From: Escherichia coli
GTDB taxonomy: Bacteria > Pseudomonadota > Gammaproteobacteria > Enterobacterales > Enterobacteriaceae
NCBI RefSeq assembly: GCF_050320075.1
Contig: NZ_CP190018.1
DNA length: 64,000 bases
Strand: one strand, 5' to 3'
Shown: positions 24,462-46,122 of the stretch, in pieces
Layout: each line of letters begins with the position of its first letter
Numbering within the stretch: position 1 is the stretch's first letter
Notes under the pieces: model-generated
The model's input: only the letters and a program-made list of their open reading frames with translations
Databases searched by the model: none
Told to the model about the DNA's origin: nothing
Position numbers and translations under genes: made by a program

Positions 24462-27205
24462 AGGCGTTTACCTATGAACGTGTGAACACCCCGGCCGAGG
24501 CGGCACTTAGCGCTCAGCGCGTACCTGGCGCAAAATTTATCGCTGGCGGGACCAATCTGCTGGACCTGATGAAGCTGGAAATTGAAACGCCAACCCACCT
24601 TATCGATGTGAACGGGCTCGGGCTCGATAAGATTGAAGTGACCGACGCGGGTGGGCTGCGCATCGGCGCACTGGTACGGAACACCGACCTGGCGGCTCAC
24701 GAGCGCGTGCGTCGTGATTACGCGGTACTCTCCCGCGCCCTGCTCGCTGGCGCGTCTGGTCAGTTACGCAATCAGGCAACCACCGCAGGTAATCTGCTCC
24801 AGCGCACGCGCTGCCCCTATTTTTACGACACCAATCAGCCCTGCAATAAGCGCCTGCCCGGGAGCGGCTGCGCGGCACTTGAAGGCTTTAGCCGTCAGCA
24901 CGCGGTGGTAGGCGTAAGCGAAGCCTGCATTGCCACCCATCCGAGCGATATGGCGGTCGCAATGCGGTTGCTGGATGCGGTGGTGGAAACCATCACGCCG
25001 GAGGGAAAGACTCGCAGTATCACACTGGCTGATTTTTATCACCCTCCGGGAAAAACGCCGCACATTGAAACCGCCCTGCTTCCCGGTGAGCTTATCGTTG
25101 CGGTGACGTTACCTCCGCCGCTCGGCGGAAAACATATCTACCGCAAGGTGCGCGATCGCGCCTCCTACGCCTTTGCCCTGGTATCGGTCGCGGCGATTAT
25201 TCAGCCTGACGGCAGCGGGCGCGTCGCGCTGGGCGTACTGGCTGTCATTACCGCCAGTAACGCCGGGGCACTCGGCAAAGGCGACAAAAACACCGCCAGG
25301 CTGTTAGGCGGCCCCACTATTGAACACTATCATCAGGCCATTGCGCTGGTAGTGGCCGAGACCTTCGAACAGGCGCGAGCGGCGGCCTCGCTGGTGCAGG
25401 CGCACTATCGCCGTAATAAAGGAGCTTACTCCCTGGCGGACGAGAAACAGGCCGTCAGTCAGCCGCCGGAAGACACGCCCGATAAAAATGTTGGTGACTT
25501 TGACGGGGCTTTCACCTCCGCTGCGGTGAAGATTGATGCTACCTACACGACCCCGGACCAGAGCCATATGGCGATGGAGCCGCATGCCTCGATGGCCGTC
25601 TGGGATGGAAATAAGCTTACCCTCTGGACCTCAAATCAGATGATTGACTGGTGCCGCACCGATCTGGCAAAAACGCTGAAAGTGCCCGTGGAGAATGTGC
25701 GTATTATCTCCCCGTATATCGGCGGAGGGTTTGGCGGCAAGCTGTTCCTGAGAAGCGATGCGCTGCTGGCGGCCCTCGCCGCCCGTGCGGTGAAACGTCC
25801 GGTTAAAGTGATGCTCCCCCGCCCCACTATTCCCAATAACACCACGCACCGCCCCGCCACCCTTCAGCACTTGCGTATCGGTACTGACCAGAGCGGGAAA
25901 ATCACCGCTATCTCACATGAAAGCTGGTCCGGAAACCTGCCCGGCGGCACGCCGGAAACGGCGGTACAGCAAAGCGAATTTCTTTACGCAGGGGCGAATC
26001 GTCATACCGGCCTGCGGCTCGCCATGCTTGATTTGCCGGAAGGGAACGCCATGCGTGCGCCCGGCGAAGCCCCCGGTCTGATGGCGCTCGAAATCGCGAT
26101 CGATGAACTGGCGGAAAAAGCGGGCATCGATCCCGTCGAGTTTCGCATCCTGAATGACACTCAGGTTGACCCCGCCGATCCGACGCGCCGCTTCTCTCGC
26201 CGTCAGCTTATCGAGTGCTTGCGCACCGGAGCGGATAAATTTGGCTGGAAGCAGCGCAACGCCACACCCGGACAGGTACGCGACGGGGAGTGGCTAGTCG
26301 GCCACGGTGTTGCGGCGGGCTTTCGCAATAATCTGCTGGAAAAATCGGGTGCGTGGGTTCACCTGGAGCAAAACGGCACCGTTACCGTGGAAACGGACAT
26401 GACCGATATTGGCACTGGCAGCTACACCATTCTGGCCCAGACGGCAGCGGAAATGCTTGGCGTACCGCTGGAGCAGGTTGCGGTTCACCTCGGCGATTCC
26501 AGTTTCCCGGTTTCTGCGGGGTCTGGTGGACAATGGGGCGCGAATACCTCCACCTCCGGCGTTTACGCCGCCTGTGTGAAGCTTCGCGAAATGATTGCCT
26601 CGGCAGTCGGGTTTGATCCTGAGCAGTCGCAGTTTGCCGACGGCAAGATTACCAACGGTACCCGAAGCGCCACGCTACATGAGGCCACCGCAGGCGGCAG
26701 ACTGACAGCGGAAGAGAGCATTGAATTCGGAATACTGAGCAAGGAGTACCAGCAATCGACCTTTGCCGGGCATTTTGTGGAGGTCGGCGTGCATAGCGCG
26801 ACGGGAGAAGTTCGGGTCCGGCGTATGCTCGCCGTGTGCGCAGCGGGGCGCATTCTGAATCCGAAAACTGCACGCAGCCAGGTCATTGGCGCGATGACTA
26901 TGGGCATGGGCGCGGCACTGATGGAGGAGCTGGCGGTAGATGACCGTTTGGGCTACTTCGTTAATCACGATATGGCGGGGTATGAAGTGCCGGTTCATGC
27001 GGATATCCCAAAACAGGAGGTGATTTTCCTGGATGATACCGACCCCATCTCCTCCCCGATGAAGGCCAAAGGTGTCGGTGAGCTGGGCCTGTGCGGCGTG
27101 AGCGCGGCTATCGCCAACGCGGTGTATAACGCCACCGGTATTCGGGTACGGGATTATCCCATCACTCTGGATAAGCTGCTCGATAAGCTGCCGGATGTGG
27201 TTTAA
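24458..27205 (+). CDS. aldehyde oxidoreductase FAD subunit (PaoB) fused in frame to the molybdopterin subunit (PaoC); apparent internal deletion
   Basis: Single 915-aa ORF: the N-terminal ~258 aa are a CO-dehydrogenase-flavoprotein-type FAD domain ([13 protein letters not shown]), continuing without stop at ...DGSGRVALG|[11 protein letters not shown]... into a molybdopterin-binding large subunit that lacks its first ~75 residues. Confidence 0.8.
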
Positions 27206-30938: not shown

Positions 30939-31823
30939 ATGGCGAAAAGGGAGAACTACAACGAGCTGTACCTGTTTATGCAGGTGGTGCGGGAAGGCAG
31001 CTTTACCGCAGCGGCTCAGCGGCTGGGTCTTGCTCAGTCAGGAGTCAGCCGTTCTGTTCGCGAGCTTGAAGAAAGGCTGGGTGTCCAGCTGCTAGTGCGC
31101 ACCACGCGTAAACTGTCGCTGACACAAGCAGGCGAGCAGCTCTACCAGAAGACGGCATCTGGATTTGAAATGTTAGATCTTGGGCTTGCCACGCTGGCGC
31201 ATTATCGAGAGACGCCCTCCGGCACGGTGCGTATCAATGCCAGCCAGCACGCGATTGATAAATGCCTGCTGCCAAAGCTGGCGGTATTTAAACAGAGATA
31301 TCCTGATATCCGGCTTGAACTGATAAATGAGAGCCGGTTCGTCGATATCATCGAGGAAAGATTCGATGCAGGTGTCCGCCTGGGGCCTGAAGTCGGCCAG
31401 GGTATGGTCGCGGTACGCATCACGCCCGATATGGAGATGGCAATTGTGGGGACTCCGGAACATTTTCGTCGCTATGGTTTTCCGCAAACCCCGGCGGATT
31501 TAAAGGCGCATCCCTGTATCGCCTATCAGTTTGCCGACGGCAGCGTATACCAGTGGGAACTCAATCAGGATGATAAAAAAATCACTCATCGCCCTGAAGG
31601 GCAATGGGCCCTATCCGACAGCTATATGGAAGCAGAAGCCGCCCGGCTGGGCCTCGGATTGGCCTATGTTCCTGTTGAACTGGTCGCGGATGATTTAGAA
31701 CACGGTAAGCTTATCAGGGTGTTGCAGCGTTACAGCCTGCGAATGGAGGGATTGTTTCTCTATTACCCTCATCGCAACGTCTCCCCCGCCCTGCGGATGG
31801 TCATTGATACATTGAAAATCTGA
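30939..31823 (+). CDS. LysR-family transcriptional regulator
   Basis: 294 aa; HTH LYLFMQVVREGSFTAAAQRLGLAQSGVSRSVRELEERL; divergent from the hydrolase/MFS pair. Confidence 0.85.
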   Translation: MAKRENYNELYLFMQVVREGSFTAAAQRLGLAQSGVSRSVRELEERLGVQLLVRTTRKLSLTQAGEQLYQKTASGFEMLDLGLATLAHYRETPSGTVRINASQHAIDKCLLPKLAVFKQRYPDIRLELINESRFVDIIEERFDAGVRLGPEVGQGMVAVRITPDMEMAIVGTPEHFRRYGFPQTPADLKAHPCIAYQFADGSVYQWELNQDDKKITHRPEGQWALSDSYMEAEAARLGLGLAYVPVELVADDLEHGKLIRVLQRYSLRMEGLFLYYPHRNVSPALRMVIDTLKI

Positions 31824-32043
31824 ACGTTAACAACGACCGACTCTTCACTGTGCAAAATTGTGTCAGGTAGTCCCTCTGCGTTCAATTCCAGGGTCTGCTT
31901 TGAGCGAGAAAGAGGGGACTATCCAGCAATGGAGATCACCCAAAAGAAAAAACCACCTGGCTCCCTCGACAACCTTCATCCGGGCATTTAGCCTCAATCA
32001 ACATTTTTATATCTGTCAGGTTACTTCATTATGAAAACTGATC

Positions 32044-32270
32044 ATCATCGTTGTTTTTGTTGCAATAGTAGAATACGCGTATTTATTCCTCCATCTCTAT
32101 TAATAACGGCAATAAACTGTTCACTTCACTGATATTTAAAATATGTATCCTTTTCAAGCTGTTCAGCGGCGTAAGAAAAAGTATTAATTATGAATTCGAT
32201 GATTTAACCATATCTGTCTGATTGGTAATCATCCGTGATTAATGCTGGTCTATTGATTACGCCAGAACCC
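32044..32270 (+). repeat. degenerate second copy of the ykgR 3' region joined directly to a ykgO 3' end-like segment
   Basis: 32044-32160 aligns by eye (roughly 80 percent) with 13155-13270, and 32170-32270 with 13951-14065 (encodes ...AVQRRKKKY* versus ykgO ...AVQGRKKKR*); the ykgM/ykgO body is absent between them. Confidence 0.7.
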
Positions 32271-33177
32271 TCTCTAGCTTATTCACCGCCGCCACATACT
32301 TCGCCGGATTTTTATCTTTAAGCACCGCCAGATTGCGTTGCTTCCAGCGAATAGCCGGAAGATGCTGAATTTCAGGATAGCGATACCGCGACCAGTCAGG
32401 GCTGTTTTGCTTAAAACTGAGCAAGAACTCGCGATCCAGATCCGTAAGATGTGACTTCAACGCCTGCGGCAGCAAAGTCGTTACTGACAGAAGCGATTCC
32501 AGCGACGTTTCCTGTTGCGTCATCCCTGAAAATTCCTGCGCGTACAACGTGGCGATCCGCTCTGTATCCCAGTTTGGAGCCAGCAACTCGGCGATGGGGC
32601 GGGGATGGCCTGCCAGATAACAAAGAAAACCGTCAAAGATCTCCCGCATCAGTCCCGGTTTCTCCAGCATATTCAGCACATCAAACAGATCGCGCGGGTG
32701 CTGACGATCAAGCGCAGCGCAGATTTTACCGCCATAAAGATCCGCCAGCGAGACGACACTCATGGTGGTGAAGCCATACTCCATTTCCACACGTTCGCAC
32801 ACAGGCATTTCTGCCGGAGGCAACAACAGCCCGCGCCAGACCGGGCTAACCTCGATCTTAATCTTTGCATCAGCGGTATTCACAATGATGCGCTTTTCAT
32901 CCGCTTTATTTTCCTGCCGAATCGCGGTGATCCCCGGTCTGCCGTTCAGCGATGCAGTAATCCTCTTCAAAGCGTCGTTGATAGCCGCCAAATCAGTATC
33001 GCGATCCGCAAAGCTCTTGTACGCCAGATCAATATCCACCGACAGACGGGGAAAATCCTGCACAAACAAATTGATTGCGGTGCCGCCTTTCAACGCGAAA
33101 CAGGACTCCTTCGCCACATACGGCAGAGCGGCCATCAACAGTTTGACCTGCCGGGCATAGCTATCACGCAGATCCAT
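32257..33177 (-). CDS. AbiEii/AbiGii-family nucleotidyltransferase toxin (type IV TA / abortive infection)
   Basis: 306 aa; NTase motifs (ALKGGTAINLF, DIDL); overlaps the upstream antitoxin gene by 14 nt. Confidence 0.85.
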   Translation of the reverse strand: MDLRDSYARQVKLLMAALPYVAKESCFALKGGTAINLFVQDFPRLSVDIDLAYKSFADRDTDLAAINDALKRITASLNGRPGITAIRQENKADEKRIIVNTADAKIKIEVSPVWRGLLLPPAEMPVCERVEMEYGFTTMSVVSLADLYGGKICAALDRQHPRDLFDVLNMLEKPGLMREIFDGFLCYLAGHPRPIAELLAPNWDTERIATLYAQEFSGMTQQETSLESLLSVTTLLPQALKSHLTDLDREFLLSFKQNSPDWSRYRYPEIQHLPAIRWKQRNLAVLKDKNPAKYVAAVNKLERVLA

Positions 33178-33967
33178 CTTCGACTCCTTCCGGTTTAAAT
33201 GCGCGTGGAACAGTAATTTGATAATCCGGCTCCAGCCAGCCGCCGGGTATGATTTGCCGCTTTCCCGTACCTGTTTCTATACCGCTTTGATCAATATACT
33301 GAAAATAAGGGTGTCCATTACGCCGGGCAAGGTAAAGCATCACCCGGTTGGTTTTAACCGAATGGCTGGCGCGAAGCAGTGCCTGCAATTTGCGTGGGCT
33401 GAGAAGATTCAACCCCTGAAACAGAGCATCGGCATGTTCGAACGAGATTAACGAAGGAACGCCGCAGGCGATCTCATACGCGGCCAGTTCCGGAACACTG
33501 CCTGCTAACTGGCGGTCGCCAATTTTCAGTTCCGTAGTAAATGGCGTTACATCAGCGGTAAGGCCTGACGTATACAGCGTGACAAACGTTGCGGATTGTT
33601 CAAAGGCAGAAAACCATCCCGGCAGTTTGACGTAAGCCGGAAGCGCGAGCCAGACCTGCGGCTTACCCTGTTCGGTATAGTGCGCATGACCCTGAAGCGC
33701 AAGGCTGGTTAGCCCCGCCACCCGAACAGGCTTTTCCCACTGCGATTGCAGGCAGTAAACCGCATCCACCCAATCCGGTTCACGACCCGTCCGGCAGTAT
33801 ACGCCGTGAGCGATCCGCCTGAGCCAGCCATTCTTCACATAGAGATAAGAGAGCTTACGATCTATGCCGTTGCGGGTAAGCCATGACTGGAGCAGCACCT
33901 GGCCGGGTAGCGTGTGCTGCATCAGCCAGTTTAGATAGTTTGGCAACTGTCGCCTCTGAATAGACAT
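33164..33967 (-). CDS. AbiEi-family antitoxin / transcriptional regulator
   Basis: 267 aa, N-terminal winged-helix-like region; immediately upstream of and overlapping AbiEii. Confidence 0.8.
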   Translation of the reverse strand: MSIQRRQLPNYLNWLMQHTLPGQVLLQSWLTRNGIDRKLSYLYVKNGWLRRIAHGVYCRTGREPDWVDAVYCLQSQWEKPVRVAGLTSLALQGHAHYTEQGKPQVWLALPAYVKLPGWFSAFEQSATFVTLYTSGLTADVTPFTTELKIGDRQLAGSVPELAAYEIACGVPSLISFEHADALFQGLNLLSPRKLQALLRASHSVKTNRVMLYLARRNGHPYFQYIDQSGIETGTGKRQIIPGGWLEPDYQITVPRAFKPEGVEDGSA

Positions 33968-34261
33968 TAGTACAAATATTTAAACCAGTGTAGATTCAGG
34001 GATACGCCACAGCAAGAAATAGTTTACTTATTCCTCATTTTGTCGACTAAAAATCGACATTAAACAAAAAATTCAAACTTAATCACTTTCGGGAAAAATG
34101 TGACAAATATATGCTCGGACTGGTTGCGGGGAGCGTGTAACATGGATACAAATCAAAATTATTGCCAGCCTCACTGATGGATTACTGGTGTCAAGAGCCC
34201 CCCTTCGGGCATGAAACGGCTGGCTAATTCTGTACAGACTGTAATCTAAGGACGATAACGC

Positions 34262-37200
34262 ATGACATATCAGGCAATTTTCACTGGCTGGGATGATCTG
34301 ACGATTGAAGACCTTCTGGTCGCTTACCGGAAAGCAAAAGCCGATAGCTTCTTTGAGAATACATTTCCTGTTGCTATCAAATTTGCCGAGTATGAGCAGG
34401 AATTACTTGAAAACCTGCAAAAACTCTTAGATCTTTTGCAGAGCGAAGATGGATTCAGTAGCAATAAGAAGTTGATTGGCAAATTTCGATTGTTACCGAA
34501 AAAATTAACCACAAAGAAAAAACATGAATCCCAAAATGGACACGTCCACTTTTCTAATCCTAAACGAGCAGCCGACCATTTATTTAATAATTTTGATCTG
34601 ATACCAGAGTTTCGTATTATTGGTGACTTCCCGGTTGATAGTCACATTATCTCTGCACTATGGATTAACATGGTCGGGCATAAATTTGATGCCAGCTTAG
34701 ATAACTGTTGCTATGGCGCGCGGCTAAAGCGTATTCGTAATGATGAATTATTTAGCAATGAGCAGGATAATCCATTCCATATCAGTGCCGTGGGTTCTTT
34801 TAGCCCCTACTTCCAGCCCTACCAAAAATGGCGTGGTGATGGCTTAAAAGCTATACGTGACGAGTTGGAAAAAGATCGTGACATTATCGCCGCCTCACTG
34901 GATTTAAAAAGTTACTATCATTTTATTGATCCACTGGCTATAACCTCTGATGATCTCTATAACACACTAAACATAAAACTGACTGAGGATGAAAAAGCGT
35001 TTACTGCACAGTTAGCAGTATTCTTAAAGCACTGGTCTGACGGCGCAGCGGCATTTGGAAAGAAAATAGCGTACAAAACACCTGTTATTAATGGTGGTCT
35101 GGTCATTGGATTAACAGCCAGTCGGATCATTTCAAATATATTGCTACACCATTGGGATAAATTAGTCATTGAAAAACTATCACCAATTCACTACGGTCGT
35201 TATGTCGATGATATGTTCCTTGTAATACGCGATACAGGGACAATTACTAATAATCACGAATTTATGTTATTGCTGCAAGATAGGCTTGGCAATGATTGCG
35301 TTTATTTGAAAAACGAGCAAAAACAAATATGGCAAATACAGCAGGGCGAGCATTTCCAGGGTAAGACCACCATCCAGTTACAATCCGATAAGCAAAAACT
35401 TTTCGTGCTTCAAGGGAGGGCTGGAATAGACCTGCTCGACAGTATCGAAAAGGAGATCTACGAGCTTTCTAGTGAACACCGCTTGATGCCTTCACCGGAT
35501 CAACTGGAACACTCCACCGCAGCTAAAGTCCTTTCCGCTGCCGGTAGTGTAGGTGAAAATGCCGATACTCTGCGCCGTGCGGATGGATTAACCATTCGTC
35601 GTTTGGGCTGGTCACTGCAATTACGCTACGTTGAAACACTGGCACGAGATCTGCCTCCAAGTGAATGGAAAGAACAGCGGGAAGAGTTTTATCAGTTTGC
35701 CTACAACCATATTCTTAGGGCTGATAATCTATTTGCACATTTTAGTTATCTGCCAAGGCTGCTTGGCTTTGCTATCAGTATGAATGAATGGCAGCACGCG
35801 GAAAAAATTGTACTTAAAGCTTACGAATCCATCAACCTGTTGGCATCGGTGATTACTTCAGGTAAGGAAGTGAATATAAATGGTTGCAAAACTCGAGCAG
35901 TAAATGATCTTTGGCGCTGTATAAAAGGCACATTAAGCTGGCTATTTGTTGATGCAGCGACACGATATTACAGTCCTGACAGATTATTTCTTGATAAACG
36001 TTCAAAGAAAGAAGAGTGCCTTGCGGATACATTTTTTAATCATATTTCACAAAGTCTGACGAATCTAAAGGATTTACTGGATCTTCGCTTTGATTCAGCA
36101 GATTTTTATTTAAAAGCGCCATTGGTAGCTCGAGCTGATTTAGCAAAGGAACCTTATAAACAGATCGTAAAGAGTCAGTCGGCAGAAAAACTTGTTAATC
36201 AGCGTGATAGTAAAAAAGAAGTTAAAATACTGAAATTAATGAGCGACTCATCGCTTATTGATATTGACGTTATTAAGCTATTTTTGAAATCAACCAAGAA
36301 TACCCGACTGGAAAAAGTGGCTAAAGGAAATCGTAAGAACGAAAGTTACCTACCTTACATTTTCCCTACACGTCCTTTAACACCCGCTGAAATATCAGAA
36401 CTGGCCCCCGAATGTGTTGGATTACCCTCCACATCCGACAAAAAACCAGATGAGAGACCGTCCACCATTTGGGCAAAATATACTCAAGCATTACGCGGAG
36501 TATGGATCAAACCGACGTTGCTAGCATCGGAGCAGGACTCAGATGAAGCGACAAAAAAAGCTCGGCCTAAGAAATTCATTCATATTGGCACAGACAGGAA
36601 ACATAAAGTTGTCGTTGCGCTAACCAGCATTAAAACAGAGGAGGACGACTGGGCTAAAATGGCCTGCAATAAATCTAACTTGTCCCGTTCAAGGTACCAG
36701 CGGATTTCTGAACTGGTTAATGCAACATTGAAACTATCTCCTAAACCTGATTATGTTTTATTCCCTGAGCTTTCAATCCCGTTACGCTGGGTTAACAGTA
36801 TTGCTGATCGTTTGAGTTCGGCGGGTATCAGTCTAATTGCGGGAACAGAATACCGCCACTTAGACGATAATCAACTGAAGAGTGAGGCCGTACTTGTCCT
36901 TTCAGATAACAGACTCGGCTATCCAGCGAGTGTCAAAATATGGCAACCCAAGCTGGAACCCGCCGTAGGTGAAGATGAGGCATTATTTTCAATTTATGGT
37001 AAGTCTTGGGATTCGACACTTAATGTTAAACAACGTAAGCCGGTATATATTCATCACGGCGTCAATTTTGGCGTTATGATTTGCTCTGAACTCCAGAATA
37101 GTAAAGCGAGGATCCGTTTTCAGGGCGCACTCGATGCATTAATGGTATTGAGCTGGAATAAAGATCTAGATACGTTTGCATCGTTGATTGAATCAGCAGC

Positions 37201-37471
37201 GCTGGATATTCATGCCTATACTATTTTAGTGAATAACCGAAAATACGGCGATAGTCGCGTACGTTCCCCGGCAAAAGAACCCTTTATGCGTGATATTGCT
37301 CGTGTGAAGGGCGGTGATAATGACTTTGTGGTCGCTGCAACGCTGGATATCGACTCGTTAAGGGCATTTCAGAGCAGGGCAAAACGCTGGCCTAAAGGCG
37401 GCGATAAATTCAAACCGTTACCTGAAGGATTCCAGTTGGCAAAGAACCGCAAAAAGCTACCGCCAAAATAA
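34262..37471 (+). CDS. reverse transcriptase fused to a C-terminal nitrilase (carbon-nitrogen hydrolase) domain; DRT type 1 / UG1-like defence RT
   Basis: 1069 aa. RT motif A ASLDLKSYYHFID, motif B GGLVIGLTASRIISNILL, motif C YGRYVDDMFLV (YxDD). C-terminal domain has nitrilase catalytic-triad contexts FPELSIP (Glu) and GVMICSE (Cys). AT-rich relative to flanks. Confidence 0.85.
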   Translation: MTYQAIFTGWDDLTIEDLLVAYRKAKADSFFENTFPVAIKFAEYEQELLENLQKLLDLLQSEDGFSSNKKLIGKFRLLPKKLTTKKKHESQNGHVHFSNPKRAADHLFNNFDLIPEFRIIGDFPVDSHIISALWINMVGHKFDASLDNCCYGARLKRIRNDELFSNEQDNPFHISAVGSFSPYFQPYQKWRGDGLKAIRDELEKDRDIIAASLDLKSYYHFIDPLAITSDDLYNTLNIKLTEDEKAFTAQLAVFLKHWSDGAAAFGKKIAYKTPVINGGLVIGLTASRIISNILLHHWDKLVIEKLSPIHYGRYVDDMFLVIRDTGTITNNHEFMLLLQDRLGNDCVYLKNEQKQIWQIQQGEHFQGKTTIQLQSDKQKLFVLQGRAGIDLLDSIEKEIYELSSEHRLMPSPDQLEHSTAAKVLSAAGSVGENADTLRRADGLTIRRLGWSLQLRYVETLARDLPPSEWKEQREEFYQFAYNHILRADNLFAHFSYLPRLLGFAISMNEWQHAEKIVLKAYESINLLASVITSGKEVNINGCKTRAVNDLWRCIKGTLSWLFVDAATRYYSPDRLFLDKRSKKEECLADTFFNHISQSLTNLKDLLDLRFDSADFYLKAPLVARADLAKEPYKQIVKSQSAEKLVNQRDSKKEVKILKLMSDSSLIDIDVIKLFLKSTKNTRLEKVAKGNRKNESYLPYIFPTRPLTPAEISELAPECVGLPSTSDKKPDERPSTIWAKYTQALRGVWIKPTLLASEQDSDEATKKARPKKFIHIGTDRKHKVVVALTSIKTEEDDWAKMACNKSNLSRSRYQRISELVNATLKLSPKPDYVLFPELSIPLRWVNSIADRLSSAGISLIAGTEYRHLDDNQLKSEAVLVLSDNRLGYPASVKIWQPKLEPAVGEDEALFSIYGKSWDSTLNVKQRKPVYIHHGVNFGVMICSELQNSKARIRFQGALDALMVLSWNKDLDTFASLIESAALDIHAYTILVNNRKYGDSRVRSPAKEPFMRDIARVKGGDNDFVVAATLDIDSLRAFQSRAKRWPKGGDKFKPLPEGFQLAKNRKKLPPK

Positions 37472-37817
37472 GAAACTGATTTTCGCTATTAATAATCAGG
37501 GTATTTTTGCGTGAGATGTTGGTAAACATGATGTAGCCCTTGCCACTCATGACCAATCGCAGTATCTTTCTCCCGCGCCTGCAAAATCAGGCGTCGGGAT
37601 TAGCCTCCTGAAGAAATCTTATCGGCGACACATGACGCGCCAGCGTCTTTTTTTGTGTTGTTCGCACGGTTACATCTCAATGGTGGGCCGGGCGGGGGCG
37701 TCGCAAGACGCGCCAGTGTCCGATAAGGCTGGTAAGGCTAACCCTGCCCGGTTCCACCACCCGCGAGATTAGCCTCTCCGGTGGTGGCTTGAACACCCAC
37801 TTATCGGAGGTTGCCCT

Positions 37818-38288
37818 ATGGCTACAATCCTCACCACTGACAGCGATTTACTCGATCTATTGACCGTCCCCTTCAATGCCACCACGGATTTCACTGTCCT
37901 TGCTGACTACTGCGCCCGCTTTGCCGAAACCCTGATTGAAACCGACGATCCAGCGCTACGACTGGCGCTCTGCGGGCGGCTTCACGCGGCTCTTGCGCTA
38001 CTGCAACCCACACTACACGACCCCATCCCACCGCATCTTACCGAAAGCCTGACCGTGGATACCCTTCCCGCCACACCAGAGCACTTTATTTCCGAACCTG
38101 ATTCCTTGTGCGAATACTGCCTCGCACTACTCCAGCTTCTGCTGGAACGTCCGGCGGAACCAAAAATGGAGCAAACCCTGACCGGGCTGCTGTGTGAGCT
38201 GGTCTGGTATTTCACGGAAGGACTCAAAGCCCCACGCTGGCTGCGTACCGCCGACGGCGTAAAATTTATCAGCGAGGTGGCCGCATGA
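37818..38288 (+). CDS. hypothetical protein (156 aa, acidic, Leu/Ala-rich), GC-rich
   Basis: ORF with good coding statistics; its stop overlaps the ATG of the downstream Ner-like fragment (ATGATG), suggesting an operon. Confidence 0.5.
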
Positions 38289-38410
38289 TGCAACAGGACT
38301 GGCATTCCGCCGACATTATTGCGGTGCTGAAAAAGCGGGGAACGCCTCTGGCGGCACAGAGAAAAACTCATTGCGGAAGCGCTGTAAATATCGCCAGAAA
38401 TCATCTGGCC
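38285..38410 (+). pseudogene. Ner/Nlp-like HTH regulator gene, frameshifted
   Basis: [25 protein letters not shown]... resembles the Ner/Nlp N-terminus (DWHxADIIAxLxKxG); continuation (REKLIAEAL) is in another frame. Confidence 0.5.
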
Positions 38411-38637
38411 TTCAAGGTACTTTGATAGCAAAGGCAAGCAGGCTGGTTCAGTCCAGTGTTTCTCTTCTTGCATTTTCAGAAATGGGAGGCTGGGAGTCTA
38501 TCGAAATGGTTCGTCGATATGCTCACCTCGCGCCTAATCACCTTACCGAACACGCACGGCAAATAGACTCAGTCCTGAACCCATCGGTCCCAAATTTGTC
38601 CCAGTCAAAAAATAAGGAAGGTACTAATGATGTGTAA
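38410..38637 (+). pseudogene. 3' fragment of a tyrosine-recombinase (phage integrase) gene
   Basis: Encodes ...[35 protein letters not shown]..., the C-terminal catalytic-Tyr region of phage integrases, with no N-terminal domains. Confidence 0.7.
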
Positions 38638-38789
38638 CTTATTGATTTTAATGGTGCGATAAGAGGAATGAATATTGCAAGTTAACGCATTGATTTATAA
38701 TAGATTATTATATTCAAAAAATATAACTATACACATATCTATACACACTGCGCGCATCGCTTGTTTTTCGCACAATTAAAAATAAGAAA

Positions 38790-39080
38790 AAAGTTTTTTT
38801 TCGAAAGAACTGTTCACACTGTTCACCTTTCTGTTTTCTCCTTTTATTTCAGTTTGATAGGTGGTGAATAATGGGTGAATGGTGAACATTCGATTCTTCA
38901 CCTCCGGCATTCTGCCGGTGTGACTCATACCGGTGATTAATCCCCCGTACTGAAATCACACAGGGAGAAAAAAAGTTTTTTTTGATTTGATTGTTCACAC
39001 TGTTCACCTTTCATTTTTCTCTTTTAATTTCAGTGTGATAACGGGTGAATATACGGTGAAGGGTGAACAGTGGATTGTTC
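38790..39080. repeat. P4-type crr (cis replication region): two ~100-bp direct repeats, each with TGTTCACC / GGTGAACA iterons
   Basis: Units at about 38790-38890 and 38973-39075 are near-identical and each contains TGTTCACACTGTTCACC plus inverted GGTGAAYA copies. Confidence 0.8.
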
Positions 39081-39098
39081 ACCTTCGGGGAATTCAGG

Positions 39099-39126
39099 GA
39101 TAAAAAAAGACCGGCAGATGCCGGTC
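39099..39126 (-). terminator. rho-independent terminator downstream of alpha
   Basis: Hairpin GACCGGCA / TGCCGGTC with an adjacent T-run on the minus strand. Confidence 0.55.
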
Positions 39127-39142
39127 AGATGAGTCATGATGG

Positions 39143-41476
39143 TCAGGTTGTTGCAGGGTCGTCACATTTTGGCAGCCAGTCGCCGTAGCTTTCCTCTTTC
39201 AGCGTCAGGTTGGTCTGTATCCCCTGTTTGGTATGGCGCTTCTCGTAATTCAGTCCGTATTCCTTCAGCATCACCGGCAGCCCCAGCCCGAACATTTTCA
39301 GACTGAGTACATTCCGGTAGCCGTTTGCCTCCATGTAGGCCAGATAGGCGTGATAGAGGTATTTACGGTAATTACGCGGGATGATACTGGCGTTCCCCAT
39401 ATACATGCCGCTGGTCTGCGGCAGGGTTTCCAGATAGCCGATAAAATCAAACGTCGGGTCGGCATCCCGTTTGATGTTCAGCGCCTCGTCTGAGTTCTGC
39501 TGGGACTGAAGCAGTGACCGGGCGAGCATCGGGTCGCTGAACTTCTGCATCAGGTGACGCACGATGACCGCCAGCTCGCGGGTGATTTTGTCCTTAAGCT
39601 GCGGGTCGCGCTCCTGCGGGGCTATCTGTTCCGGGAAGTGAATAATCACCCGCCGGCGTGACACGCCGCCGCTGCGGTCGGTGAAGCGCATCGGGTTATT
39701 GTTCACGGCCAGAATTACCGCCGGGATATGCGTGGAGTATGCATCCCGGTATTTCGGGTCAACGGACACCGCATCGCCGCCGGTGATGGCCTTGAGTCCG
39801 GCACCGTCGCCGCTCCATTTTTCCTGGTCCGGCAGGCGTATCAGTGAGAAGCCAGTTAACGCGGCACGTTCACGCGGGGATTCCAGCGTCTCGATGGTGG
39901 CCGACGTGGCGTTATCCTCCCCGGCCAGCAGGGTGGCTATTTCGGCCATGATACTTTTGCCGCTGCCGCCGGGACCGGTCACCTCCAGAAAGAGCTGCCA
40001 GTCGTAGCGGTTTGCCAGCACCATAAACAGTGCGGCCAGAATCACGTCGCGTTTTTCCGCACGGCCACCGGCGGCACGGTCAAGCCAGCGCCAGAACGCG
40101 GGGGCGTGGGTCTCCAGCGTTTCACCGTCCACCGGCGGGGTGAAATCCACATCGCACAGGGTGCGCATCCAGTGTGACGGACTGTGCGGGTGGAACGTGC
40201 CGTTCTGCGTGTCGAGCACGCCGTTACGAAAGCCAATCAGGCGGCGGGAGGGGGCTTCCTGCTGCGGAATAATCAGCTTCAGGGTGTCCACCACGGAGGC
40301 CACCTTCCCGGAGGAGAACGGCGCGCGCAGACGCTGAAACAGCCCGGCCACATCCCGGGCAAAGTCCTGTGGTGGCAGCACCTTCCAGACACCATTTTCA
40401 TAACGGGACAGAAGCTGGCCGTTGGCATCGACCGCGAGCGCCTCGCCGTAATGCTCATAGATACGCATGGCCTTTTCGCTGGTACTCATGGCGGAAAACT
40501 CCGCTTCGCTCATGGTGTCGAACGGGCTTTCAGCCGGTGGCCGGATGGCATCATAAATGGCCTTACGGGTGGCTTCCCCGCCGTACTGCGTGAAGGCATC
40601 ATTCCAGTCACCGAAGACCGGCGGCAGGGCAACAACGCCCTCACACGCATCTGCGGCTGCGGCGGCTTTTTTCTGGCCGTCACCGCTGAGGTCACGGTCT
40701 GCGGCAAGGACAATCTGACAGGCCGGATGCTTCTGCCGGGCAAGGCTGGCCAGAGAAAGGAGGTTCACGGAAGAAAGCGCCACCATCACCGTTTCACCGG
40801 TCAGGTGATGTACGGTAAGTGCGGTCGCGTATCCCTCCGCTATCCACAGACGTTTTCCGGCCTGATTCTGTCCTTCAAGGGTGTGACAGGTGCCCCTGAC
40901 CTGTCCGCCTTTCAGGGTGCGCTTACGGCCGTCAGCACTGATTAACTGAAGGTTAACCAGTTCGCCGCTGTCGTCATACAGTGGCACCACAAGGTCACCG
41001 GCACGCCAGCTCACGCCACCGGCTCTGTGTGTGCCGGTCAGCATCCGGCATTCCCGGCCGGGAAAGCCCTTGCGGGTCAGGTAGGCGTTACCGGTTCCGG
41101 GACGGGTTTTCGCCATCAGGGTTTGTGCCAGTGCGGCGGCGTTCTTCCGGGCAGCGTCTGTTTCAGCACCGGCGGCAGCCGTCACTGCCGGGTCAGCCGG
41201 GGGCAGGCTGCCGGTCACGGCAGCCACCTTTGCTGCCGCGTCGGACGGGGAAACACCAAACACCTTTTCAACCAGTTTCAGGCCGTCACCGGCACCACAC
41301 TGATTGCAGTACCAGGTGCCGCGCCCCTCCCTGTCATCAAAACGGAAGCGGTCACTCCCGCCACAGACCGGACAGGGCTGATGACGGTTTTTCAGCACCT
41401 GAATCCCCAGCGCCGGGAGAATACGCGGCCAGTGGCCGAGCGCATGGCTGACGGTGGCGGTTACGTTCATTTTCAT
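39143..41476 (-). CDS. alpha: P4 alpha-type primase-helicase
   Basis: 777 aa; N-terminal zinc-binding primase motif (CPVCGGSDRFRFDD...WYCNQCGAGDG), central and C-terminal helicase region; iterons on both sides. Confidence 0.9.
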   Translation of the reverse strand: MKMNVTATVSHALGHWPRILPALGIQVLKNRHQPCPVCGGSDRFRFDDREGRGTWYCNQCGAGDGLKLVEKVFGVSPSDAAAKVAAVTGSLPPADPAVTAAAGAETDAARKNAAALAQTLMAKTRPGTGNAYLTRKGFPGRECRMLTGTHRAGGVSWRAGDLVVPLYDDSGELVNLQLISADGRKRTLKGGQVRGTCHTLEGQNQAGKRLWIAEGYATALTVHHLTGETVMVALSSVNLLSLASLARQKHPACQIVLAADRDLSGDGQKKAAAAADACEGVVALPPVFGDWNDAFTQYGGEATRKAIYDAIRPPAESPFDTMSEAEFSAMSTSEKAMRIYEHYGEALAVDANGQLLSRYENGVWKVLPPQDFARDVAGLFQRLRAPFSSGKVASVVDTLKLIIPQQEAPSRRLIGFRNGVLDTQNGTFHPHSPSHWMRTLCDVDFTPPVDGETLETHAPAFWRWLDRAAGGRAEKRDVILAALFMVLANRYDWQLFLEVTGPGGSGKSIMAEIATLLAGEDNATSATIETLESPRERAALTGFSLIRLPDQEKWSGDGAGLKAITGGDAVSVDPKYRDAYSTHIPAVILAVNNNPMRFTDRSGGVSRRRVIIHFPEQIAPQERDPQLKDKITRELAVIVRHLMQKFSDPMLARSLLQSQQNSDEALNIKRDADPTFDFIGYLETLPQTSGMYMGNASIIPRNYRKYLYHAYLAYMEANGYRNVLSLKMFGLGLPVMLKEYGLNYEKRHTKQGIQTNLTLKEESYGDWLPKCDDPATT

Positions 41477-41490
41477 GGTGTTGTTCTCCT

Positions 41491-41811
41491 TCAGTGCAGT
41501 ACCGGCGCTTTTATGTGACGGGCACAGAGTTCATCCATCACAACCAGCCCGAGAAAGGACAGCGACGGCGCGGCCTTCAGGGGGCCGGATTCCATTAAAT
41601 CTTCCAGCAGGGCACAGGCTATCTGACGCCCTTTTTCCTCACCGTGCTGGCGCAGATAAAAGCCTTCCAGCTCAGCGGCGATGGCCGCCTCCAGTGATTC
41701 AAGGGTGAGATGCGGGTAGCGGTGCTGACGTTCGCACACGGTCAGCCAGGCACAGGCGACAGCGCGACGGTAAAGGGCTGCGCGTAAGACGGGCGGTAAG
41801 GGTGTTTTCAT
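41491..41811 (-). CDS. P4-family conserved hypothetical protein (106 aa)
   Basis: ORF directly upstream of alpha in the left operon. Confidence 0.55.
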
Positions 41812-41946
41812 TTGTTTTCCTCCCTGTGACAGATGACTGCATTCCGTGCCGGTTGCATTAACTGATAAGGCATATCTGCGTCTCCTGAAGACGTGCGTAT
41901 CCCTGCGCGAATACGCACATTTAATTTTTCGGGTGTCGTTTTTTAA

Positions 41947-42402
41947 TTACAGATAATTGCGGTAACTGTTATCCGGGGTGATTTCCGGGTCAGGCTCCGT
42001 GCGGGGAATTTCCCGCCATTCCCGCGCCACCGGTGCCGCCCGGCTGGCCGGAACAGTGTCCTGCGGGTAAATATCCAGATATTTCTCCCGCCATTTCTGT
42101 AATTCCGGGTCTCCGGCCATTTCTTTCAGTACCGCATGCCGGTTTACGGGGCTGCGTTTAAACAGGTCAGGACGGTCACAGGTAAATTCCCGCAGAAAAC
42201 GCCCCAGCGGGATGTCTGTGGTGCGCCCGTCAGCGAGGATACGCACAAGGATACTGAATTTACGGCGGTACGGGTTCCAGACAATGTCCGGGCAGCGGTA
42301 CGGCATTTCCCACGGAATACCGTCTTCCAGAATGCCGACCACGGCCACATCGGGAAAACCGGCAGAACGGTAAATCTCACCGGGCTGGGGAAAATCAAAC
42401 AT
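41947..42402 (-). CDS. P4-family conserved hypothetical protein (151 aa; P4 orf151-like position)
   Basis: ORF in the alpha operon; size and position as in P4. Confidence 0.55.
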   Translation of the reverse strand: MFDFPQPGEIYRSAGFPDVAVVGILEDGIPWEMPYRCPDIVWNPYRRKFSILVRILADGRTTDIPLGRFLREFTCDRPDLFKRSPVNRHAVLKEMAGDPELQKWREKYLDIYPQDTVPASRAAPVAREWREIPRTEPDPEITPDNSYRNYL

Positions 42403-42682
42403 GCGTCCTGTCTCCCCGGTCTTTCTGCTGGGCGAGAAAATCGCGGCACAGGCCTTTGGCTTTCAGTTCATTCAGCACAAAATCAATATCTTCATTCAGG
42501 TAGCTGAAAATATGCGGAATGTAGAGCTGATGCAGGCCGGAGAGTTCACGGTGAATCAAATCACCCCCAACAAACCGGGATACGGCGCTGGCGCGGTTGA
42601 GCTTATGGTAAGCCTCAATGCTGAGGTGTTCACGGGCGTCATGACGCGCTGAGACGGTCTGAGGGGCTTTTTTATTACGCAC
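42395..42682 (-). CDS. P4-family small protein with probable GTG start (95 aa; epsilon-like position)
   Basis: GGAGG RBS 6 nt upstream of GTG at 42682; ORF ends overlapping the orf151-like start; the 177-aa ORF in the track is probably an over-extension. Confidence 0.4.
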
Positions 42683-42875
42683 GGGACACCTCCACCACCG
42701 GCAGACGGGCAGCAAGGGAGAGCACATAGTCACGGACAAGGGAACGGCGGGCGCTGCGTTCATCACCGGCGACGGTGCGAAGCATACAGATACGGGGATG
42801 ACGATCTGCGCGACGGACAGCCGCAAACACAAAGACAAATTCAGGGTGTGAGGTGGTAAGGGTTGTAGCCATGAT
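42675..42875 (-). CDS. P4-family small hypothetical protein (66 aa, [26 protein letters not shown]...)
   Basis: Short ORF immediately downstream of the immunity-RNA region; stop overlaps the next start. Confidence 0.4.
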
Positions 42876-42883
42876 GGCAGCCT

Positions 42884-43136
42884 CCTTGAAGTAACAGTTA
42901 CAGCTACCACTGGAGTTCCTACGCTCATGGGTGGTAGCCCGGACGGGGGTAGGAATACCGGCCTTCAAGGAAACCGGCCAGCCCGAAGGCTGCCCCGCCC
43001 GGACCACCATTATCTGACAGAGGCTACGGTTTAAAAACCACAGCCAGAAAAACAGGTGTGCCGAAGCAACGACGTAAAAAAAGACGCATGGCGCGTCATA
43101 TGTCGCCTTGAAGTAACTCGGGTTCCTACGCCCGGC
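42884..43136 (-). ncRNA. P4-type RNA immunity region (CI-RNA-like seqB flanked by complementary seqA / seqC-like repeats)
   Basis: Direct repeats CCTTGAAGTAAC...GTTCCTACGC at 42884-42924 and 43106-43136, and between them (42949-42971) GGTAGGAATACCGGCCTTCAAGG, complementary to both; in the untranslated leader of the left operon. Confidence 0.5.
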
Positions 43137-43225
43137 TGCCGATTTTGCGGCAGCGGAAAAACTATATCCGCAAATGCCGGAAAAAGGCAAGCCAGAAAAA
43201 GGGACTTTTTGCAGAACAGGCATCA

Positions 43226-43492
43226 TCATGCGTCATACCCCCGTTGGCGTCCGGCAATGCGGCCGGCCATCCATGCGGTGACTTCAGAGTGCAGCCAGGC
43301 CACATTTTTACCGCCAAGACTCACCTGCGGCGGAAATTCCCCCTTACGGATGAGTTCATAGATGGTCGAGCGTGACAGGCCGCACAGGTGCATCACTTCC
43401 GGCAGACGTAAAAAACGCTCCTGCGTGATGTCCGGCAGCGGCATCAGTGGCGTCACAGGGGCGGGAGACGGGGAAGAAAAAACAGCTTGCAT
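43226..43492 (-). CDS. alpA: AlpA-family phage regulatory protein (small MerR-like HTH)
   Basis: [50 protein letters not shown] is the AlpA signature; true start may be the internal Met (43444). Confidence 0.85.
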
Positions 43493-43769
43493 CGGGCTAC
43501 CTCGTTAATGTCCATACAGCACCGGATAAGTCCGTCCGGCTTCTGGTAGCGCTTTATTTTGTGAATATTTTCAGCAGACGCAACAGGGGGAATTTGTTCC
43601 GGCAACCTTACAATGGCTGTGTGTTTTTTATCCATCTGGACTGGAAGGGTCTCAAAGGGTTCTGAAGGACCTGGAATTTTTTATAGTGAAATACAAATTG
43701 TTTTTTCTTATTTATTTCAGTGAATTAATAAAAATAAACAGTGATAAACAGCATAAAAAGCCCATCAAC

Positions 43770-43880
43770 GGGTGAACAGTGGTGAACAGACGGTGAACAG
43801 TCATTACTGCGATTGTTCACCCTTTAACTTACTGTATTACTTATCTTTTTTCTTATGGTGAACAGAGGTGAACAGTAAAA
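43770..43880. repeat. P4-type origin of replication: six GGTGAACA / TGTTCACC iterons
   Basis: GGTGAACAGTGGTGAACAGACGGTGAACAG (43771-43800), TGTTCACC (43815-43822), GGTGAACAGAGGTGAACAG (43858-43876), within AT-rich DNA between alpA and sid. Confidence 0.8.
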
Positions 43881-44043
43881 TATAAAAAAACAAACAGTAA
43901 GCCGGTTTTTCCTGCGACCTTTTCCTGGCTTGCCGGTCTGAGGATGAGTCTCCTGTGTCAGGGCTGGCACATCTGCAATGCGTCGTGTTGCTGTCCGGTG
44001 TACGTCACAATTTTCTTAACCTGAAGTGACGAGGAGCCGGAAA

Positions 44044-44778
44044 ATGTCTGACCACACTATCCCTGAATATCTGCAACCCGCACTGGCACAACTGGAAAAG
44101 GCCAGAGCCGCCCATCTTGAGAACGCCCGCCTGATGGATGAGACCGTCACGGCCATTGAACGGGCAGAGCAGGAAAAAAATGCGCTGGCGCAGGCCGACG
44201 GAAACGACGCTGACGACTGGCGCACGGCCTTTCGTGCAGCCGGTGGTGTCCTGAGCGACGAGCTGAAACAGCGCCACATTGAGCGCGTGGCACGCCGGGA
44301 GCTGGTACAGGAATATGACAATCTGGCCGTGGTGCTGAATTTCGAACGTGAACGCCTGAAAGGGGCGTGTGACAGCACGGCCACCGCCTACCGGAAGGCA
44401 CATCATCACCTTCTGAGTCTGTATGCAGAGCATGAGCTGGAACACGCCCTGAATGAAACCTGTGAGGCGCTTGTCCGGGCAATGCATCTGAGCATTCTGG
44501 TACAGGAAAATCCGCTCGCCAACACCACCGGCCATCAGGGCTACGTCGCACCCGATAAGGCTGTCATGCAGCAGGTGAAATCATCGCTGGAACAGAAAAT
44601 TAAACAGATGCAAATCAGCCTCAGCGGCGAGCCGGTTCTCCGGCTGACCGGACTGTCAGCGGCAACACTTCCGCACATGGATTATGAGGTGGCAGGCACA
44701 CCGGCACAGCGCAAGGTGTGGCAGGACAAAATAGACCAGCAGGGAGCAGAGCTTAAGGCCAGAGGACTGCTGTCATGA
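44044..44778 (+). CDS. sid: P4 Sid-type capsid size determination (external scaffold) protein
   Basis: 244 aa from the internal Met (MSDHTIPEYLQPALAQLEKARAAH...), coiled-coil rich; followed by delta and psu. Confidence 0.85.
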   Translation: MSDHTIPEYLQPALAQLEKARAAHLENARLMDETVTAIERAEQEKNALAQADGNDADDWRTAFRAAGGVLSDELKQRHIERVARRELVQEYDNLAVVLNFERERLKGACDSTATAYRKAHHHLLSLYAEHELEHALNETCEALVRAMHLSILVQENPLANTTGHQGYVAPDKAVMQQVKSSLEQKIKQMQISLSGEPVLRLTGLSAATLPHMDYEVAGTPAQRKVWQDKIDQQGAELKARGLLS

Positions 44779-45275
44779 TTTACTGCCCGTCGTGTGGACA
44801 TGTTGCTCACACCCGTCGCGCACATTTCATGGACGATGGCACCAAGATAATGATTGCACAGTGCCGGAATATTTATTGCTCTGCGACATTTGAAGCGAGT
44901 GAAAGCTTTTTCTCTGACAGTAAAGATTCAGGAATGGAATACATTTCAGGCAAACAGAGATACCGCGATTCACTGACGTCAGCCTCCGGCAGTATGAAAC
45001 GCCCGAAAAGAATGCTTGTTACCGGATATTGTTGTCGGAGATGTAAAGGCCTTGCACTGTCAAGAACATCGCGGCGTCTGTCTCAGGAAGTCACCGAGCG
45101 TTTTTATGTGTGCACGGATCGGGGCTGTGGTCTGGTGTTTAAAACGCTTCAGACCATCAACCGTTTCATTGTCCGCCCGGTCACGCCGGACGAACTGGCA
45201 GAACGCCTGCATGAAAAACAGGAACTGCCGCCAGTACGGTTAAAAACACAATCATATTCGCTGCGTCTGGAATGA
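44775..45275 (+). CDS. delta: P4 Delta-type late transcription activator (tandem Ogr-like zinc fingers)
   Basis: 166 aa; two CxxC...CxxC zinc-finger units (MIYCPSCGH...CRNIYC and YCCRRCKG...CTDRGC). Confidence 0.9.
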   Translation: MIYCPSCGHVAHTRRAHFMDDGTKIMIAQCRNIYCSATFEASESFFSDSKDSGMEYISGKQRYRDSLTSASGSMKRPKRMLVTGYCCRRCKGLALSRTSRRLSQEVTERFYVCTDRGCGLVFKTLQTINRFIVRPVTPDELAERLHEKQELPPVRLKTQSYSLRLE

Positions 45276-45348
45276 GGGCTGCCGGTTAACACCGGCCGTC
45301 GCCGCACACCGTATTTTTATTCTTCAGCATGATGAGAAAGAGATAACG

Positions 45349-45921: not shown

Positions 45922-46085
45922 AATTCCCCGAAAATCCGCCTGTTTTTACTGAAAAAAGCCATGCATCGATAAGGTGCATGGCTTTGCATGCGTTTTCCTG
46001 CCTCATTTTCTGCAAACCGCACCATTCCCGGCGCGGTCTGAGCGTGTCAGTGCAACTGCATTAAAACCGCCCCGCAAAGCGGGCG

Positions 46086-46104
46086 GGCGAGGCGGGGAAA
46101 GCAC
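46086..46104 (+). other. cos cohesive-end sequence of P2/P4 type
   Basis: GGCGAGGCGGGGAAAGCAC matches the 19-nt P2/P4 cohesive end as I recall it; position just downstream of psu fits P4. Confidence 0.65.
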
Positions 46105-46122
46105 TGCGCGCAACAATGATGA

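Follow-up and report, generated by a model that had tools for sequence, protein, structure and literature searches.

What an RT-nitrilase gene standing alone in an Escherichia coli chromosome is for, and how it came to stand alone, are the questions raised by the locus described here, in which a reverse transcriptase (RT) is fused to a carbon-nitrogen hydrolase. The gene occupies 34262..37471 on the + strand of a 64,000-nucleotide stretch of contig NZ_CP190018.1 (assembly GCF_050320075.1), called the window below, and consists of a single intact open reading frame (ORF) of 1069 amino acids (aa) with an ATG start, exactly where a preliminary description of the sequence had placed it. On the strength of its profile matches, it is a member of the UG5-large group of class 3 UG/Abi RTs (DRT11-type, 'DRT5L' in recent papers). 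Its product is probably, with a confidence of roughly 0.7 and by homology to characterized relatives, a single-protein anti-phage defence enzyme of this group that would act by the mechanism proposed below.

Family assignment and catalytic residues

The gene is preceded by a Shine-Dalgarno sequence, AAGGA, 8 nt 5' of the start codon, and its product is entered in RefSeq as WP_001521910.1 with the annotation 'RNA-directed DNA polymerase'. The PADLOC profile RT_UG5-nitrilase (PDLC03780) matches residues 1-1068 on profile positions 9-901 of 907 (E=0, 1034.5 bits), and a second PADLOC UG5-nitrilase model (PDLC02995) matches the RT part only, at 188.7 bits. The next different group, Drt1a (PDLC03745), reaches 88.6 bits over residues 151-409 only, while another Drt1a model (PDLC02171) scores 34 bits over residues 940-1045. 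In the scheme of Mestre (2022; PMC9226505), the RT-nitrilases form class 3, within which UG5-large is the fused form of about 1000 aa and UG1 proteins measure 1200-1300 aa. The protein is assigned to UG5-large because the UG5 profile is matched over its full length; identity with UG1/DRT1 is ruled out by the partial Drt1a match and the length of 1069 aa. Membership in class 1 (AbiA, AbiK and Abi-P2, with HEAT-like/alpha-Rep repeats) is likewise ruled out, since the protein carries a nitrilase domain, which makes it class 3 by the definition of Mestre, and since the class 1 UG/Abi profiles score at most 44 bits on it. The preliminary description, which had named the gene a class 1 UG/Abi RT of DRT type 1, was therefore right that it encodes a UG/Abi defence RT fused to a nitrilase, while the profile search that it proposed puts UG5-large in the place of UG1 and class 3 in the place of class 1. 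Its statement that the surroundings are neither those of a retron nor those of a group II intron agrees with the present results. With the NCBIfam model retron_St85_RT the protein stays at 32 bits, below the cut-off of 235; an Rfam scan of 31800-39200 (E<=1) turned up neither retron nor group II intron RNA, and no maturase domain was found in the protein.

The RT (fingers/palm) domain comprises about residues 120-400 (34619..35461, + strand). The PADLOC RT profiles align to residues 124-410, and a Foldseek search relates the N-terminal part of an AlphaFold2 model to a diversity-generating retroelement RT, AbiA, DRT9 and DRT2. The model was built on an alignment of 53 representatives that are 26-64% identical to the window protein, which also served to measure conservation, and it is compact and confident (pLDDT 87.6, pTM 0.91). 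All elements of the RT core reported earlier are present and invariant in these 53 diverse homologues. Specifically, they include D214 of motif A (SLDLKSYY; codon at 34901-34903), motif B (GLVIGLTASRIISN), Y314-V-D316-D317 of motif C (YVDD, residues 314-317; 35201-35212) and, in addition, the motif D lysine K377, all read on the + strand. Beyond the RT domain, the alignment reveals a conserved motif, SSExRLLP, whose first two residues are S403-S404 (35468..35473, +).

An alpha-helical middle domain of about residues 445-760 (35594..36541, +), delimited from the secondary structure of the AlphaFold2 model, joins the RT to the nitrilase; an equivalent helical extension has been described in class 3 RTs (Mestre 2022, PMC9226505; Neville 2026, PMC13275509). 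The nitrilase (C-N hydrolase) domain spans about residues 770-1069 (36569..37468, +). It was matched by the PADLOC profile RTasNitrilase over residues 783-1058 (E=2e-43), and the C-terminal third of the model resembles solved nitrilase-superfamily amidases in Foldseek (6ypa, E=6.5e-8, TMt 0.65). Where the preliminary description had pointed to Glu and Cys contexts of a catalytic triad, a complete Glu-Lys-Glu-Cys tetrad is invariant in the 53 homologues and consists of E836 (FPELS; 36767-36769), K897 (36950-36952), E904 (36971-36973) and C941 (MICSE; 37082-37084), again on the + strand. Close to the end of the protein lies the motif F-K1051-P-x-P1054-x-G-F (37409..37432, +), recognized by a phmmer alignment to 9yfd_A; neither K1051 nor P1054 varies in the family alignment, and G1056 is present in 49 of the 53 sequences.

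The general-purpose profile libraries did not recover either domain. A Pfam-A scan of the protein, one of the checks proposed beforehand, gave no match to RVT_1, CN_hydrolase or Intron_maturas2, and an NCBIfam scan gave RT matches below threshold only. The identification rests on UG/Abi-specific profiles and on the structure model for this reason, and the Pfam result is a sensitivity limit for a divergent family rather than evidence against the RT and nitrilase domains. At E<=1e-30, 858 representatives of 50%-identity clusters match, which makes this a large family. The clade of the window protein shares about 70% identity and a near-constant length of about 1067 aa (1064-1080 aa) across many gammaproteobacterial genera, among them Salmonella, Yersinia, Citrobacter, Vibrio, Marinobacter and Alteromonas (homologues P0002-P0120). 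Such conservation is unusual in a defence gene; the carriers of the clade are integrase islands and Tn7-like elements. The gene is an ordinary member of an already catalogued anti-phage family, detectable by existing PADLOC profiles.

The same observations raise the question of whether the protein serves in defence at all. It might instead serve its island as an addiction or stabilization module, or it might be a metabolic nitrilase whose polymerase domain has degenerated. The misses of the Pfam CN_hydrolase and RVT_1 models and a degree of conservation across genera that is unusual for a defence gene would fit such a role, and the anti-phage function of the window protein is predicted by homology only. 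In contrast, both active sites are invariant in the 53 homologues, and the relatives consistently occur in defence loci, namely with type I restriction-modification (RM), BREX-1 or Kiwa-like genes, with PADLOC candidates, or on Tn7-like and integrase islands. In addition, the homologues DRT1, DRT11 and the E. coli E101 system are proven anti-phage systems. A role outside defence is consequently very improbable. The gene is also under purifying selection, with dN/dS against the E. albertii copy of 0.08 in the C-terminal part and 0.12 in the N-terminal part. As noted before, it is AT-rich relative to its neighbours, with a GC content of 0.419 across 34171-37538 against 0.53-0.57 in the flanks.

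Proposed mechanism and the search for partners

The mechanism of RT-nitrilases had been called not understood, a statement that is now outdated. DRT1 has been characterized by cryo-EM and its mechanism described, and covalent DNA has been found for UG5 enzymes (PMC13275509); DRT11 has been validated as a defence system (bioRxiv 10.64898/2025.12.16.694600). DRT1, a UG5-small (DRT5S) and a UG5-large (DRT5L) enzyme all make template-free DNA with RNase A present, and this DNA is covalent to the protein. In DRT1 the primer is Ser402, and the DNA adducts drive nitrilase-mediated tetramers into filaments, in which domain-swapped C-termini occlude the nitrilase site while the lid completes that site in trans. 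The K1219A substitution and C-terminal deletions abolish defence. Activation requires the phage ssDNA (single-stranded DNA) helicase Dda, the outcome is abortive infection, and DRT1 works alone (PMC13275509). For UG5-large itself, DRT11 protects Sinorhizobium meliloti without a transmembrane (TM) partner and in a manner that depends on the multiplicity of infection, and its defence needs the RT aspartates as well as the nitrilase cysteine (Sanchez-Nieto et al., 2025; bioRxiv 10.64898/2025.12.16.694600).

With DRT1 as the presumed mechanistic model, the window protein would act as follows. Its RT domain would make short, semi-random ssDNA without an RNA template. The primer would be a hydroxyl side chain within the enzyme, with Ser404 as the candidate, so that the DNA would stay covalently attached. 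The DNA adducts would drive a nitrilase-mediated assembly of oligomers, in which the K-P-x-P-x-G-F tail of a neighbouring subunit would close over the nitrilase site (E836/K897/E904/C941) and keep the assembled enzyme dormant. Phage infection, probably through ssDNA-handling replication proteins, would lift this block; the nitrilase would then hydrolyse an essential C-N compound, and, by abortive infection, the cell would stop growing or die before the phage completes its cycle. The invariance of all RT and nitrilase catalytic residues, the confident AlphaFold2 model and the alignment of the lid motif to that of DRT1 suggest that the enzyme is catalytically competent.

The choice of Ser404 as a candidate priming residue is a low-confidence guess from the alignment, and equivalence with Ser402 of DRT1 is not claimed. 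Position 404 is Ser in all 53 sequences, and no other Ser or Thr is invariant in the family alignment; position 403 is Ser in 41, Ala in 10 and Thr in 2. The SSExRLLP motif also occurs in the DRT5L and DRT5S of Neville. The distance from YVDD is 87 aa for S404 and 77 aa for the priming S402 of DRT1, and hhalign left this region unaligned; of DRT1 residues 278-523, only motifs B-C could be aligned with the family profile. Confidence is low because this region is unalignable to DRT1 and because Neville et al. saw no conservation.

Several points weigh against the proposed function and mechanism. All steps of the mechanism are carried over from relatives whose identity to the window protein is about 30% or lower. 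In a PDB sequence search DRT1 was the one match, and it matched the window protein in the nitrilase part only. According to Neville et al. (PMC13275509), the priming serine of DRT1 is not conserved in other class 3 RTs. The UG5-type system of E. coli E101 requires its TM partner (PMC9122126). Moreover, a search for a consensus promoter upstream of the RT gene yielded only weak sigma-70 matches (8/12), and its expression is inferred. Finally, this orphan copy might be impaired, since its closest relatives are usually operonic with type I RM genes.

A partner protein like that of E101 was not found. No ORF with a hydrophobic segment was seen downstream of the RT gene, and the 64-kb window contains no homologue of the Drt1b/RTasTM family even at E<=10. 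Among 76 related loci, a gene of the Drt1b|RTasTM family lies 3' of the RT in three, and the downstream TM protein (clusters 85/1858, Drt1b-like) is optional in UG5-large, where it accompanies 31 of 299 members.

An RNA partner was also considered, as retrons, DRT2, DRT3 and DRT9 suggest that the RT might copy a dedicated non-coding RNA (ncRNA) encoded in its flank. Three Rfam RNAs do lie on the same strand 90-300 nt downstream of the gene: the a1b1 targets (c4-a1b1) at 37562-37614 (43.8 bits, just under the gathering score of 46.7), isrK at 37575-37653 (68.8 bits) and C4 antisense RNA at 37676-37764 (71.1 bits). All three are immunity RNAs of P4 type, from the C4/CI family and its targets; they are overlain by a RefSeq CDS for an 'ash family protein' at 37608-37772, and they belong to a degraded P4-like element rather than to the RT. 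The RNA-template reading is disfavoured because this flank is also present in an islet variant that lacks the RT; P4-type immunity RNAs are moreover repeated at 42876-43107, within an intact satellite. No RNAs other than those of the P4-type flank were encountered near the gene. No flank conserved among the RT homologues was found either. In the relatives the upstream gene abuts the RT start or runs 4 nt into it, and no conservation was seen in the DNA downstream, so the flanks are coding or unconserved. At the DRT11 locus, RNA-seq revealed no ncRNA and a deletion 179 bp upstream was tolerated (bioRxiv 10.64898/2025.12.16.694600). A dedicated RNA template is thus highly unlikely, and protein-primed, template-free synthesis is preferred.

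Origin of the orphan copy and the company of its relatives

The orthologues in Salmonella and Yersinia (75-76% identity) are the last gene of an array, hsdR-hsdM-hsdS-KwaA-like-KwaB-like-RT, in which the Kwa genes were recognized by PADLOC. A trace of this arrangement is found in the window. The 59 nt 5' of the E. coli RT gene (34198..34256, +) are 81% identical to the 3' end of the Salmonella/Yersinia KwaB-like gene (related loci L002, 5938-5995, and L008, 4943-4995) and include the retained ribosome-binding site of the RT gene. A complementary islet, designated L087, is present in E. coli CCUG 73778, where AbiEii-AbiEi, hsdR-hsdM-hsdS, the same right flank and tRNA-Thr-proA follow one another without an RT. 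Window 32256-34170 corresponds to L087 67-1984 at 93.5% identity, a match that stops 57 nt before hsdR (start at L087 2041), and window 37539-38528 corresponds to L087 8075-9060 at 89.5%. Between the gene and the beginning of this right-flank homology lies an RT-specific 3' flank (37472..37538, +), and 68 nt of the RT 3' flank are common to the E. albertii copy. The L087 hsdRMS genes are 83% identical in nucleotide sequence to the Salmonella cassette, with HsdM at 89% amino acid identity.

The simplest reading of these alignments is an ancestral island of the form AbiE / hsdRMS-kwaAB-RT / flank that has undergone two complementary deletions. The window variant would have lost hsdRMS, kwaA and all of kwaB but its last 60 nt or so. 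The RT gene would thereby have come to follow the old hsdR upstream region directly, on an island adjoining tRNA-Thr (thrW) where the former operon stood. That upstream region, 33968..34170 (+), is common to the AbiEi-hsdR intergenic region of L087 and is the probable source of RT transcription; placed behind it, the gene is therefore probably still transcribed. A full hsdRMS-kwaAB-RT operon was not found in complete E. coli genomes at blastn sensitivity. As a separate observation, a KwaA/KwaB-like pair with about 68% DNA identity to the Salmonella slot genes adjoins a type I hsdR, without an RT, in several hundred E. coli genomes (H21-H32). The thrW islet was observed in two forms, one with AbiE and hsdRMS but no RT, the other with AbiE and the RT but no hsdRMS, and the flanks of the two are the same. 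Matches of 38479-38667 in other genomes are annotated as integrase and tRNA-Thr, an annotation suggestive of a partial att site near 38650. ARAGORN found no tRNA within the window, and the relation to tRNA-Thr rests on the annotation of the matching genomes.

Such an origin allows a less favourable interpretation, in which the gene is a stranded operon fragment. The RT-nitrilase would need the upstream type I RM system or the cargo of its slot, and the E. coli copy would be inactive or weak but not yet decayed. Of the close relatives (>=58% identity), 19 come with sufficient DNA upstream, and 11 of these are the last gene of hsdRMS operons; the window copy keeps only about 60 nt of its upstream gene without any strong promoter in sight, and the UG5-type system of E101 needs its partner gene (PMC9122126). 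However, the other 8 of the 19 are also without RM, and DRT11 and DRT1 are autonomous. The ORF is intact with all catalytic residues present, dN/dS against E. albertii is 0.08-0.12, the gene is probably still transcribed from behind the former hsdR upstream region, and about 257 of 5426 complete E. coli genomes carry the locus at 99% identity or more. An inactive remnant is therefore unlikely, and a functional, self-sufficient enzyme is the preferred reading.

The surroundings of the relatives were surveyed in 76 loci from one-genome-per-species contigs, about 60 of which have at least 2.2 kb of upstream DNA; the lineages are non-independent, and the counts stand without a control gene set. 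In about 30 of the 60, a methylation-based defence operon holds the RT-nitrilase inside it or at its end. Type I RM genes lie directly upstream on the same strand in 18 loci (L002, L006-L010, L014, L016, L017, L021, L024, L033, L044, L048, L063, L065, L069 and L073), and a large methylase takes this place in 2 more. HsdM-like ORFs within 10 kb on either side of the RT are upstream on the same strand in 29 of 31 cases; of the other two, one is upstream but on the opposite strand and one is on the same strand but downstream. Random placement would put about one quarter of them upstream on the same strand. Within the close clade, the RT directly follows hsdS in L014, L016, L017 and L024 and otherwise follows a variable slot that contains Kiwa-like genes, PDC-S06, an ATPase or PDC-M59A/B.

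A second arrangement involves BREX. In eight distant relatives (L046, L049, L057, L060, L066, L075, L078 and L081), the RT gene, sometimes with one or two others, lies inside pglX of a complete BREX-1 operon, while in L054 and L080 it follows an intact pglX. The split falls at about position 641-647 of the 1210-position NCBIfam model in the two loci checked; in L046 the N-terminal ORF covers model positions 1-645 and the C-terminal ORF 641-1209, and in L075 they cover 1-641 and 647-1210. BrxC, PglZ and BrxL were confirmed for L046. The split is old and maintained rather than a recent disruption, because both PglX halves are intact, differ between loci to the point of 40-85% identity, and show purifying selection, pN being well below pS. 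No description of a link between RT-nitrilases and RM or BREX was found in the literature searched.

Since about half of the sampled relatives reside in type I RM operons, always downstream of the genes for methylase and specificity, or in the split pglX of BREX-1, often behind a variable cargo slot, UG5-large RT-nitrilases might be dedicated back-up (guard) modules of methylation-based immunity rather than free-standing systems. This idea is speculative and, on balance, doubtful. The module would fire when a phage neutralizes or evades RM or BREX, for example when DNA-mimic anti-restriction proteins or ssDNA-handling proteins strip the enzyme of its own DNA adducts. If it were true, the E. 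coli gene would be a naturally uncoupled copy that allows a direct test of the autonomy of the module. The RM/BREX embedding of the relatives is a more interesting lead than the gene itself, and, if functional, it would link DNA-synthesizing abortive-infection enzymes to methylation-based immunity.

The neighbours of the gene in the window give no comparable hint of a partner. To the left lie paoABCD, a major facilitator superfamily (MFS) transporter, a hydrolase, a LysR regulator and a truncated ykgR, followed by AbiEii and AbiEi on the - strand and then the RT. AbiEi and AbiEii were confirmed by PADLOC (E=5e-80 and 4e-116), and RefSeq annotates a C-terminal integrase fragment at 38434-38637; the earlier picture of a defence islet beside AbiE and integrase debris is thus borne out. 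A functional partnership with AbiE was considered and rejected because the adjacency does not recur, with AbiE found near none of the others among the 76 related loci. Further to the left, a 915-aa ORF at 24458-27205 (+) begins with N-terminal PaoB sequence and ends with C-terminal PaoC sequence, where RefSeq records two partial pseudogenes; the aldehyde oxidoreductase operon has apparently undergone an internal deletion that kept the reading frame.

The right side begins at 37539 with the P4-type immunity RNAs, a 156-aa ORF, a broken helix-turn-helix gene and the integrase fragment, followed by an intact P4-like satellite at 38800-48685. The satellite encodes an alpha primase-helicase (39143-41476, - strand), sid/delta/psu (44026-45921) and an integrase (about 47480-48685). 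Its psu-int defence hotspot (about 45922-47480) holds a gene with a HEPN domain at about 46123-47508. Clusters of the octamer TGTTCACC at 38820-39083 and 43771-43874 are presumably P4 crr- and ori-type iterons.

Comparison with known systems

By itself the gene adds little, as it represents a catalogued type of defence RT that is common in E. coli. Nevertheless, it offers a conveniently minimal natural example of a UG5-large clade that is very conserved, in a host that is easy to work with, and would allow one to ask whether the DRT1 mechanism, in which protein-primed DNA adducts gate a nitrilase, extends to UG5, which residue primes (Ser404 being the prediction) and what the nitrilase hydrolyses.

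The closest known system is DRT11 of S. meliloti RMO17 (CP009145, 109347-112340), which is 29.8% identical to the window protein over 99% of its length. Both belong to the same UG group and are single polypeptides of about 1000 aa in which an RT, a helical linker and a nitrilase follow one another, with YVDD and the nitrilase Cys in place, and neither has a TM partner or an ncRNA. DRT11 also lies in a variable defence region adjoining an AbiEii-type gene. In contrast, DRT11 is plasmid-borne and alphaproteobacterial and falls in another subclade (about 30% identity), whereas the window gene appears to be what a deletion has left of a chromosomal RM operon. The DRT5L of Neville (2026) has the same architecture, and SS-x-x-R-L-x-P, the nitrilase motifs and the C-terminal motif are common to both proteins; the identity is 27-29% in two alignable blocks, as measured on a DRT5L sequence recovered from the supplement by optical character recognition (OCR).

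DRT1/UG1 of K. pneumoniae (PDB 9YFD; PMC13275509) is similarly a class 3 RT-nitrilase fusion with a catalytic tetrad. Its nitrilase part matches the window protein (9YFD, E=1e-6), and phmmer aligns F-K1051-P-L-P1054-E-G-F of the window protein with the DRT1 lid, T-K1219-T-Q-P1222-A-G-F. A Ser-Ser dipeptide occurs in both proteins at a similar distance after YVDD. Nevertheless, DRT1 belongs to another UG group, as the partial Drt1a match shows, it is 1229 aa long compared with 1069 aa, and the two proteins are unalignable outside RT motifs B-C and the C-terminal part of the nitrilase.

Within E. coli, the nearest comparison is the RT-nitrilase of strain E101 with its single TM protein, presumably the system named Rst_RT-nitrilase-Tm in DefenseFinder. 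It is also of UG5 type and associated with a P4-like satellite (Rousset et al., 2022; PMC9122126). While the E101 genes occupy the psu-int hotspot and include a required downstream TM protein, the corresponding hotspot of the window holds the HEPN gene, and the window RT lies to the left of the satellite in a separate islet, with no TM homologue in the window.

A last parallel is an analogy only. The anticodon nuclease PrrC is embedded in the EcoprrI type I RM locus; it is an abortive-infection effector whose gene shares its position, within or behind a type I RM operon, with many relatives of the window gene. PrrC is an unrelated protein, however, and the window copy has lost its RM genes.

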